A DNA stretch of 64,000 bases from a virus. The notes beneath the pieces are model-generated. The model saw only the letters and a list, made by a program, of their open reading frames with translations, did not search any database and was not told where the DNA came from. Position 1 is the stretch's first letter. Every line of letters begins with the position of its first letter. The stretch lies in the IMG/VR virus record IMGVR_UViG_3300017593_000402, positions 64,001-128,000 of that record. One strand, written 5' to 3'. Below are positions 50,587 to 64,000 of the stretch, one piece after another. The translations under genes and the position numbers were made by a program.

Positions 50587-50750
50587 TCCCATTTATATTT
50601 ATAAATTTTTAATTTATAAATAAAATAAATGGGAAAATATATAAATCTTCGATTTATATTTAGAAAATTTTCAATTTTCTTTATTTTATATCCTATTATC
50701 TTCGATAATCGGCCAAACTATTATAATATTATAAACTACAATAAATTGTA
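50587..50750. repeat. AT-rich run of consecutive inverted repeats; candidate replication origin
   Basis: Six back-to-back hairpins/palindromes, three with TTC/GAA loops. Confidence 0.6.
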
Positions 50751-50791
50751 TTTTATAATCTTCTAATACTTTGGATTAGTTACAATTTAGC

Positions 50792-51013
50792 CTAGCTCTC
50801 CTTTCCATCTAGTAGGAGATACCACCTAGCTTCTCCATACCCGTAGAAATTTTTGTCGGGACACTCGTCCAAATCTGCTATGTATTTTGGTTCAAAATTA
50901 AATGTGCATATCCTCCAGGGAGTCCTGTAGAATATGCACAGTCTTTCTCCTACTTCACAATACTTTATCCACTTGTCATTTCTTATTGGAAAACCAGGTA
51001 TTAATTCTTTCAT
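50792..51013 (-). CDS. hypothetical protein
   Basis: ATGA overlap with the AAA gene stop. Confidence 0.5.
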   Translation of the reverse strand: MKELIPGFPIRNDKWIKYCEVGERLCIFYRTPWRICTFNFEPKYIADLDECPDKNFYGYGEARWYLLLDGKES

Positions 51014-59977: not shown

Positions 59978-60280
59978 CATACGAAATGTAAAAAGTAAAA
60001 GTGAAAATGTTTTCACATACAAAATGTAAAAAATGAAAGTGAAAATATTTTCACGCACAAAATAAAAATGAAAACGTTTTCACTCGCTCAGTGGGAGTGT
60101 TTCCAGAAAAAATAAAGTGAGAATATTTTAGGTTGCGAGTGAAAACGTTTTCACTCATAAAAAATAAATTAGAAGGTGAGGTTGTTCCAGGAATTTATTA
60201 AGTGAAAATATTTTCACTGTTGAAGATGTTTTTAGTTTTTGAGAGTGTGGTTATCCACAAAAGTGAAAATATTTTCACTT
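59978..60280. repeat. cluster of six GTGAAAAYRTTTTCAC-type palindromes (protein-binding array)
   Basis: Copies at 60001, 60039, 60068, 60139, 60202, 60263; first two lie within 38-bp imperfect direct repeats; TTATCCACA at 60251. Confidence 0.85.
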
Positions 60281-62759: not shown

Positions 62760-63371
62760 ATGAAAAAATTGGTAGAGTTAGAGGAAAGATTTAATGTAAA
62801 AATTAGGTTGTTGGAGCCTTTACTAGGCACGGTTCCTAAAGACCAAGAAGTATATAAAAGGTTTATAGCAAGCAAGGCTCCTGACCCTGAAGGAGGAGAA
62901 GAAGAGACTGAGACTGTGGTGTCAGTAGAAGAGAAAGGCTGGACTGGATTCCATAAGGACGAGAAAGGATTATTTATCTATAATTACATGATTAAAGGCT
63001 TTCTTAAAGCCGCTTGTGAAGTGTGTATGAGTGCAGGAGCATTAGATAAGATTTCAGCATATAAAAAATGGATTGACTTAGTTGTTTTTATCGACCCTCG
63101 ACGGATTTATTTCGGCAAATACGAACCTGATGGGTGTCTTGAAAGACCTTTGCGGACTTTAACGCCTAAAGGCCCAAGAGTTAGTGTTTGCAGAAGTGAT
63201 TATATAAAAGAAGGTACTGAAATAAATTTTATGGTTCGGATTCTGAAGAATAAGGCAGGGATTGACCAAGTTGCGATAGAACAAATGCTTGACTATGGCC
63301 AGTATGTTGGTCTTGGTCAATGGCGAGGTTCAGGAGGTTATGGAAGATTTGAAATAGTAGAGATAACGTGA
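62760..63371 (+). CDS. stand-alone RAMP-superfamily (Cas7/Csm3-like) RNA-binding protein
   Basis: N-terminal strand VKIRLLEPLLG, YMIKGFLKAA helix (cf. GSSLKG.LR), C-terminal glycine-rich loop GLGQWRGSGGYGRF; GGAGG RBS; no cas operon nearby. Confidence 0.8.
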   Translation: MKKLVELEERFNVKIRLLEPLLGTVPKDQEVYKRFIASKAPDPEGGEEETETVVSVEEKGWTGFHKDEKGLFIYNYMIKGFLKAACEVCMSAGALDKISAYKKWIDLVVFIDPRRIYFGKYEPDGCLERPLRTLTPKGPRVSVCRSDYIKEGTEINFMVRILKNKAGIDQVAIEQMLDYGQYVGLGQWRGSGGYGRFEIVEIT

Positions 63372-63372
63372 T

Positions 63373-63637
63373 AGTGGCGTTATGTTAGGTGTGGGTGTGG
63401 TTCAGTAGACCGAAGTTTCGGTTCAGTGAAGTTCAGTTGAGGCAAGGCAAAGTAAATTTTAGTCAAGGTATAGTCGAGTTTAGTTGAGGTATTGCTCAGT
63501 AACGTTCTGGCAATGTAGCGTGCGAAGTAAAGTTTGGGAATAGTACTGTATCTTCAGGCACAGGTAAGGTATCGCAAAGCCTTGGAACAGTATCGCATAT
63601 TTTGGCAAAGGTAAGGCACTGTATGGCTGCGGTGAAC
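63373..63637 (+). ncRNA. pentamer-periodic (NGY)NN repeat array; candidate guide RNA of the RAMP protein
   Basis: About 50 consecutive units, e.g. GGT-TC AGT-GA AGT-TC AGT-TGA GGC-AA GGC-AA AGT-AA; begins 2 nt after the RAMP stop and ends at the next RBS; no ORF of 60 aa or more. Confidence 0.75.
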
Positions 63638-63656
63638 AAAAGGAGGTGAGTAATTT

Positions 63657-63992
63657 ATGAAAGTTCTATCAACAGGTCCGTTGGAGTCTCGGTTACAGGT
63701 TTTACCTGGGTTACGTGAAAGGAGAGGAGTTCTCTATATAGATTTTAATTTTTATATGGAAAACTCACATATAGTAGGAGAGGTGTTTCATAAGTTAAAC
63801 ATAGTTCCAATTCAAGTTAGTACTAATTTAGCTGTTGAGAAAGTATTCGTTTATTTTGTGAGTCCTTTGTTAGACAAAACTCCTTTAGGGTACAGACCAC
63901 CTATGTTTGAGGTTGAGATTGAAACTGATGACGGTACATATATTAAAAATGTAAAATTAGTAGAAAGAGAGGTTGATAGGTATGAAATGTAA
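63657..63992 (+). CDS. hypothetical protein
   Basis: AAGGAGGTGA RBS. Confidence 0.6.
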   Translation: MKVLSTGPLESRLQVLPGLRERRGVLYIDFNFYMENSHIVGEVFHKLNIVPIQVSTNLAVEKVFVYFVSPLLDKTPLGYRPPMFEVEIETDDGTYIKNVKLVEREVDRYEM

Positions 63993-64000
63993 GATTGAGA

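Follow-up and report, generated by a model that had tools for sequence, protein, structure and literature searches.

The locus lies at the downstream end of a 64,000-nt window, the whole stretch of DNA analysed here, which covers bases 64001-128000 of one 137,043-bp virus record that CheckV rates as 100% complete; the phage comes from a hydrothermal vent. It consists of a gene, vipr, and of a periodic array that follows it on the same strand, embedded in a run of same-strand genes:

62760..63371, + strand: vipr gene, an intact open reading frame of 203 aa, predicted to encode a Vipr-family RAMP (Cas7-like) protein
63373..63635, + strand: predicted vrRNA array, 263 nt, about 50 xGY/NN units in 12 blocks
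63636..63656, + strand: sequence joining the end of the array to the ribosome-binding site AAAGGAGG of the next gene

An initial annotation of this DNA had described a 203-aa protein with the motifs LLEPLLG, IKGFLK and GLGQWRGSGGYGRF, followed by repeats 2 nt after its stop. The reading frame at 62760..63371 (+) indeed carries all three motifs; the last base of its stop codon is 63371, and the repeat units set in at 63373. The description of the repeat stretch as free of reading frames was nearly right, those that overlap it being only 32, 42 and 47 aa long. The next gene begins with an ATG at 63657, with the strong ribosome-binding site AAAGGAGG before its start. Between 62400 and 63900, neither a terminator-like site near the array nor a promoter-like site on the + strand was found, which suggests that the array would be co-transcribed with vipr and with the downstream genes.

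Downstream of the array, an endolysin, a large terminase, whose gene lies 1.6 kb away, and a portal with an apparent intein give the locus a phage context. The portal-like gene (1014 aa; L056:6666-9707, contig 130666-133710) is situated just past the end of the window; a LAGLIDADG domain and a weak Hint match lie in the middle of its product, the Pfam SU10_portal match is split over residues 363-891, and the gene thus looks like one interrupted by an intein. About 0.8 kb past the array and two genes ahead of the large terminase, L056:4431-4775 (contig 128431-128778) encodes a protein of 115 aa in which a helix-turn-helix is combined with a zinc ribbon of the NrdR-like kind, and whose sole homologue among the 55 related loci described below is found in L001. 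This protein could be a small terminase subunit or, conceivably, a DNA-binding helper of the VIPR locus. A 139-aa reading frame that occupies 63973-64000 of the window and continues to contig position 128392 matches phrog_1485; its similarity to DUF1599 ('nucleotide modification associated domain 1') falls short of the 25-bit cut-off, at 20.3 bits and E 7e-4. At 59978-60063 of the window, where long reading frames are few, a stretch of 38 nt is repeated in tandem (2.3 copies, 87% match).

Searches with the 203-aa protein gave no match in Pfam, no meaningful match by sequence in the PDB and, in PHROGs, only phrog_4652, a family of unknown function, at E 0.0039. Relatives number 405 in one database and form 1745 clusters at 50% identity in another, and none of them carries a Pfam domain; the NCBI protein J7J18_06425, a member of this clade, is 82% identical. 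An AlphaFold2 model built with 50 relatives as input (pLDDT 82.3, pTM 0.76) has the RAMP architecture, with a single RRM core, a thumb hairpin and a glycine-rich loop. When this model was compared with the PDB by Foldseek, the check that had been proposed for a suspected RAMP or Cas7-like protein, a Cas7/Csm3 fold was recovered: there were 170 matches at E<=0.001, with type VII Cas7, Csm3 and Cas7-11 on top at E ~1e-8, although sequence identity to the matched Cas7 chains is merely 10-17%. In BFVD the best match (E 3.9e-17) is to a phage protein annotated as 'Cas system-associated RAMP superfamily protein'. A second line of comparison used the Vipr of Escherichia phage SUSP1, encoded by a 194-aa gene that is flanked on either side by a long intergenic region in which strict GGYNN repeats abound. 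Alignment with hhalign of a profile of 50 sequences of the present family (A1) to one of 30 SUSP1-clade sequences (A3) gave a probability of 91.4% and an E-value of 9.1e-7 over 177 columns, which is near full length; the single SUSP1 protein aligned to the family at the G-loop only, with a probability of 59.8%.

The 5-nt periodicity reported for the adjoining sequence is the strongest in the contig, but it is not strictly one of 5 nt, as one extra base is inserted every 4-5 units. Autocorrelation of 63372-63656 is 0.42 at lag 5 compared with ~0.2 at other lags, and the period-5 score of the array exceeds all others in the window (z 7.7) and in the 137-kb contig (z 8.0); its value, 0.183, was reached in 0 of 2000 mononucleotide shuffles (maximum 0.071). 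Further autocorrelation peaks stand at lags 21 (0.50), 26 and 47 (0.48), and those at 21 and 47 are explained by an alternation of 21- and 26-nt blocks. In a phase-tolerant scan for GY units the array scored 56.5, against 11.0 for the next best site on either strand and 12.5 for the shuffled genome; no solo guide elsewhere in the contig rose above the shuffled-genome level, so that the phage carries a single array without detectable solo guides. A second period-5 signal, at 50651-50850, was considered as a GY array and rejected, being AT-rich intergenic sequence without G-Y units. The region concerned, 50600-50790, has A/T runs beside minus-strand genes and the second-highest period-5 score (z 4.4-4.6), and is possibly a promoter or origin region.

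Parsing by dynamic programming, in which 'G then pyrimidine' was the sole information given, divided the array into 50 units: 38 of five bases, 11 of six and an irregular one. The NGY triplet with a variable dinucleotide that had been read from the repeats reappears here as xGY/NN, where position 2 is G in 92% of units and position 3 is a pyrimidine in 96%. Position 1 is free except in the unit that follows a six-base unit, where it is G in 11 of 11 cases as opposed to 22% elsewhere. The array is in this way divided into blocks, each of which opens with GGY after one extra base, and whose lengths alternate between 21 and 26 nt:

Block 1, from 63373, + strand: 21 nt
Block 2, from 63394, + strand: 26 nt
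Block 3, from 63420, + strand: 21 nt
Block 4, from 63441, + strand: 26 nt
Block 5, from 63467, + strand: 21 nt
Block 6, from 63488, + strand: 21 nt
Block 7, from 63509, + strand: irregular, 17+11 nt (63509-63536)
Block 8, from 63537, + strand: 26 nt
Block 9, from 63563, + strand: 21 nt
Block 10, from 63584, + strand: 26 nt
Block 11, from 63610, + strand: 21 nt
Block 12, from 63631, + strand: one unit

In the four regular 26-nt blocks the fourth unit is non-GY, and the closest relative, L001, has its non-GY units in matching positions. Counted on these blocks, some 17 of the 50 units start with GG followed by C or T, mostly singly and at block starts. The RNA of the array would be poor in C (36 of 285 bases), with a fold energy no better than that of shuffles (z 0.05), and no 3' tail was found between blocks or at the array. 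Rfam recognised no family in the array and only three tRNAs in 16 loci, which leaves no hammerhead ribozyme among the matches.

Whether homologues are accompanied by similar arrays, as the initial annotation had asked, can be answered from 55 IMG/VR loci, all 55 of which contain a period-5 stretch. It starts at the 3' end of the gene in 48, lies 165-660 nt downstream in four (L023, L026, L048 and L053) and is present upstream only in three (L010, L019 and L052). The period-5 score is at least 0.14 in 54 of the 55 loci, compared with a maximum of 0.123 outside the array in the present contig, and the G-Y pattern is on the strand of the gene in 55 of 56 arrays. Across these 56 arrays about 20% of units have six bases, and blocks of five units are the commonest. 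Of 827 units that directly follow the extra base, 80% have G at position 1 and 63% have A at position 4; for the 3351 other units the figures are 27% and 42%. Linkage to vipr is not shared by the surrounding genes. The other neighbours in the window have no homologue beyond L001 and L003 among the 55 loci, and clustering of reading frames from 51 non-redundant loci gave no common family but vipr and antisense shadows, save in one closely related sub-clade; there is thus no conserved helper (vap) gene.

Selection on the array can be followed in the comparison with L001, whose protein is 97% identical. The insertions or deletions between the two arrays are of 5 and 26 nt, exactly the size of one unit and of one block, and these are lengths that no reading frame could tolerate, and translation of the array as a conserved peptide, which had been named as an outcome fatal to the proposal, is thereby ruled out. 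Substitutions at unit positions 1 to 5 number 12, 1, 16, 5 and 8 of 50; at position 3 every one of the 16 exchanges C and T, and the single change at position 2 falls in a unit that has no G there. The G (1 of 50 changed) and the pyrimidine (16 of 16 C<->T) are therefore preserved, which argues for purifying selection on the grammar of the units. In other close pairs, which come from two locus groups of one sample each and are not independent, positions 4 and 5 are the most variable, position 1 is nearly so and position 2 is the least. Public runs that contain the stretch number four, all of them DNA and from one hydrothermal-vent study, with contigs that show no variation; no RNA run is listed among them.

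These features fit the VIPR (Viral Interference Programmable Repeat) systems, programmable RNA-guided DNA binders that have been described only very recently and have been proposed to predate CRISPR. In preprints from April 2026, VIPR is described as a minimal RAMP, Vipr, together with vrRNAs of alternating fixed and variable bases, mostly phage-borne, which silences competing elements by gapped pairing with dsDNA (bioRxiv 10.64898/2026.04.26.720920). According to the same preprint, in which 667 systems are published, all seven types use GGY/NN 'or a related consensus', some loci without YNNGG having NNNGG, YNNNG or NNNNG repeats instead (Methods); a vap accessory gene, of which six kinds are known, is 'typically' present and not required; the vrRNAs of type II have 9-16 repeats; and in 'staggered arrays' the vrRNAs abut with a one-base overlap (legend of fig. 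S18). By token-entropy periodicity, a later preprint arrives at 21 clusters and reports further non-canonical triplets, among them WGT/NN and TGH/NN (bioRxiv 10.64898/2026.10.21.760802). Detailed study has been confined to type II, with small-RNA sequencing for types III and V.

With VIPR type II, as described by its authors for Escherichia phage SUSP1 and a Pseudomonas fulva prophage, the present locus shares a RAMP that is small, has a single RRM and a thumb, and carries a G-loop of the form G-x-G-[D/Q]-W-R...G-R-F; it is likewise phage-encoded, homologous at the profile-profile level and without cas genes or a CRISPR array (here Cas1 and repeats across the contig, and the flanking reading frames), and its five-base units, with a fixed G-pyrimidine and variable bases, adjoin the gene on the same strand. 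However, SUSP1 has strict GGYNN repeats in tracts of ~15 units with a structured tail, whereas in the present array G2 and Y3 are the only fixed positions, successive blocks of 4-5 units are shifted by one base and no tail follows, although an invariant structured 3' tail after each repeat tract characterises type II. SUSP1 also has vap1, an accessory gene of a kind for which no conserved counterpart occurs at this locus. As the GGY triplet is present in only about a third of the units, the array lacks the four or more tandem YNNGG repeats by which canonical vrRNAs are recognised, and of the published forms only the alternative YNNNG fits; a related consensus of the NNNGG, YNNNG or NNNNG kind does stand beside vipr, xGY/NN being equivalent to YNNNG. 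As far as the preprint text and figure legend describe them, YNNNG and 'staggered' arrays resemble the present one in that the unit is Y-N-N-N-G, neighbouring blocks adjoin with no tail between them and each boundary displaces the frame by one base, and the one-base punctuation seen here may be a 'staggered array' in that sense. The blocks, at 21 and 26 nt (4-5 units), do not reach the length of type II vrRNAs, for which 9-16 repeats are stated. The WGT/NN and TGH/NN arrays are similar in having five-base units with one degenerate triplet position beside Vipr-like folds, but their motifs have ~10 repeats and one-base punctuation is not described in the passages of that preprint that concern them.

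A further difference from SUSP1 lies in the protein. The cryo-EM account of SUSP1 Vipr assigns the reading of G1 to H17 and D177, that of G2 to thumb R138 and W178, and the pocket for Y3 to E71/M72, R179, C173 and T175 (bioRxiv 10.64898/2026.04.26.720927). In the profile alignment, W178 and R179 correspond to W188 (46 of the 50 family sequences) and R189 (50/50), the thumb arginine R138 to R145 (44 R and 6 K of 50) and M72 to M77 (41/50), whereas H17 and D177 correspond to T24 and Q187 (49/50 each). From this alignment the readers of G2 and Y3 appear to be kept and those of G1 to be replaced, and T24 and Q187 would be consistent with an array in which the first position is free. At the 20% identity of the SUSP1 alignment single-residue equivalences could be shifted, especially H17/T24 and R138/R145, so that those of the thumb and the first strand are tentative. 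The agreement of the changed G1-reading residues with the free first repeat position provides a testable rule of protein-RNA specificity.

Taken together, an intact 203-aa gene and, next to it, the strongest five-base rhythm of the contig indicate that the locus is very probably a VIPR system, composed of a minimal Cas7-like RAMP gene and a vrRNA array behind it on the same strand of a 137-kb phage genome. Membership had been suspected in the initial annotation, and it is now supported by the fold, the profile match to the SUSP1 clade, the conserved RNA-contact residues of the G-loop and the association of gene and array in 55 of 55 loci. The kind of system is thus already known, and the present locus is an additional example of VIPR.

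The structural matches, the best of which are to Cas7 of types VII and III, could also be taken to mean that the protein is a stray Cas7 of a CRISPR-Cas system, served by crRNAs from the host or from elsewhere in the phage. The earlier statement that cas1/2/5/6/10 and a CRISPR array are lacking holds for Cas1 and for the array: Cas1 (PF01867) is absent from the whole contig, Tandem Repeats Finder detected no CRISPR-like array in the window or the contig, and the ten flanking reading frames contain no Cas Pfam domain, Cas1 being the one cas family for which the search extended over the whole contig. Class 1 CRISPR-Cas systems combine cas genes with a CRISPR array of 60-79-nt period, and their Cas7 proteins (type VII Cas7, type III-A Csm3) take a step of 6 nt, as opposed to the 5 nt of the adjoining array. 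Given also the 10-17% identity to Cas7 chains and a profile that matches the Vipr clade instead, a stray Cas7 is scarcely credible in this complete contig. The periodic stretch might alternatively act as DNA, for example as binding sites for a packaging or replication protein, with the RAMP-like gene an unrelated neighbour; its position 1.6 kb upstream of the large terminase gene and the exclusively DNA nature of the four public runs would agree with this. However, the array accompanies a vipr homologue in every one of the 55 loci, in which the other neighbours are not conserved beyond L001 and L003, its pattern is specific to the strand of the gene (55 of 56 arrays), and the homologous SUSP1 protein is reported to bind five-base units of the same type as RNA (10.64898/2026.04.26.720920, 10.64898/2026.04.26.720927), all of which makes a DNA element highly improbable.

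That the locus is a decaying remnant, in which a Vipr gene stands beside an eroded array that no longer makes working guides, is suggested by the 5 of 50 units without a G-Y core, by the irregular block at 63509-63536 and by the lack of a target in the searches described below. It is a very unlikely reading, as the reading frame is intact and 97% identical to that of a relative, G2 and Y3 are still present in 92% and 96% of units, changes relative to L001 preserve the G and the pyrimidine, and the four non-GY units of the regular 26-nt blocks recur at the same places in L001. A better case can be made for a VIPR relative that follows a different rule, in which each block of 21-31 nt is a separate short guide or each unit offers three variable bases (GY+NNN), and whose gapped code, or even target (RNA vs DNA), is unlike the 1-nt-skip DNA silencing of type II. 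The blocks are modular, the 26-nt indel relative to L001 being exactly one of them, and the unit after the extra base is set apart by its G1 and A4 frequencies; position 1 is as variable as the NN positions among close relatives, the SUSP1 residues that read G1 are replaced, and the canonical rule yielded no target. However, alternative rules with contiguous or skipped triplets, or with an extra or missing skip at block junctions, yielded no target either, N4N5x1 triplets show no depletion of stop codons (152 observed, 158 +/- 8 expected), the databases searched may simply lack targets, and the preprint text already allows a 'related consensus', YNNNG repeats and staggered arrays (10.64898/2026.04.26.720920). 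On balance, a different rule is possible but rather unlikely.

On the preferred reading, that of a VIPR system, a mechanism can be proposed for the locus by analogy with SUSP1. The array would be transcribed together with vipr, and each Vipr protomer would bind one five-base unit. The fixed G-pyrimidine part would be taken up by the protomers and the variable bases left accessible; these may then pair, in gapped fashion, with dsDNA of a competing phage, satellite or prophage, so that its transcription is silenced. The initial annotation had arrived at the same model, a solo RAMP on pentamer RNA with a fixed triplet as handle and a gapped variable guide, which coincides with the published VIPR mechanism. 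For the present locus we infer from that analogy the transcription and processing of the array, the binding of protein to RNA, the targeting of DNA rather than RNA, the skip rule, the targets and the nature of the 21/26-nt blocks.

The present copy is part of a large branch (1745 clusters at 50% identity) in which only G and Y are fixed, the array is punctuated by one extra base and then a GGY unit every 4-7 units, and a conserved helper gene is absent. It may be that this branch uses a guide format of its own, with only G-Y fixed, Q for D in the G-loop, no helper and blocks of 21-31 nt set by the extra base and a GGYA unit. The functional guides would then be short blocks in which four to six protomers assemble from a GGY anchor, or such blocks would form the structural repeat of one long filament, and the RNA-target code would be unlike the published 1-nt-skip rule; such a format is a tentative proposal, and a doubtful one.

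Searches for targets were made under several of these rules. Within the own contig, windows of 9 units read by seven rules (skips of 0-3 nt; one base more or less where blocks join) matched at best 16 of 18 bases, the same as shuffles of dinucleotide order. Strings decoded from 51 arrays (NN, triplets, and triplets with the extra base) were compared by BLAST with ~0.96 Mb of related loci and the contig, and the top matches equalled those of shuffled controls. Exact matching of 620 whole blocks (5-8 units) under four rules gave 455 matches against 428-444 in controls, 3 against 0-3, 416 against 363-417 and 442 against 371-411. Windows of 10 or 7 units from the arrays of the window and of L001, read by six rules, showed no excess over controls; nothing above chance emerged for guides against the vipr genes of rivals, or from decoding triplets by dropping the G-Y letters. 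Three patterns built from blocks 63467-63513 were scanned against IMG/VR: the 1-nt-skip pattern had 4 matches, in which flanking units agree at 7-10 of 32 positions, the pattern with an extra skip at junctions had 2 (10-12 of 32), and the contiguous-triplet 24-mer had 0. The databases searched may lack the targets.

The locus thus offers a clean minimal case, one gene and one array in a complete hydrothermal-vent phage, from a very large branch with a repeat grammar unlike that of the characterised type II, and the punctuation into blocks raises the question of how guides are delimited and read in this branch. Some relatives have larger arrangements. Arrays lie on both sides of vipr in L032 (2001-2975 and 3476-5275), L014, L021 and L035, and in L032 there are ~324 very clean units (G2 99%, Y3 99%), with tRNA genes on both flanks. 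At L027/L028:3547-4075, L035:3643-4425 and L030:3574-4150 the G-Y score is almost as high on the opposite strand, which points to arrays in opposing orientation or to tracts on both strands.
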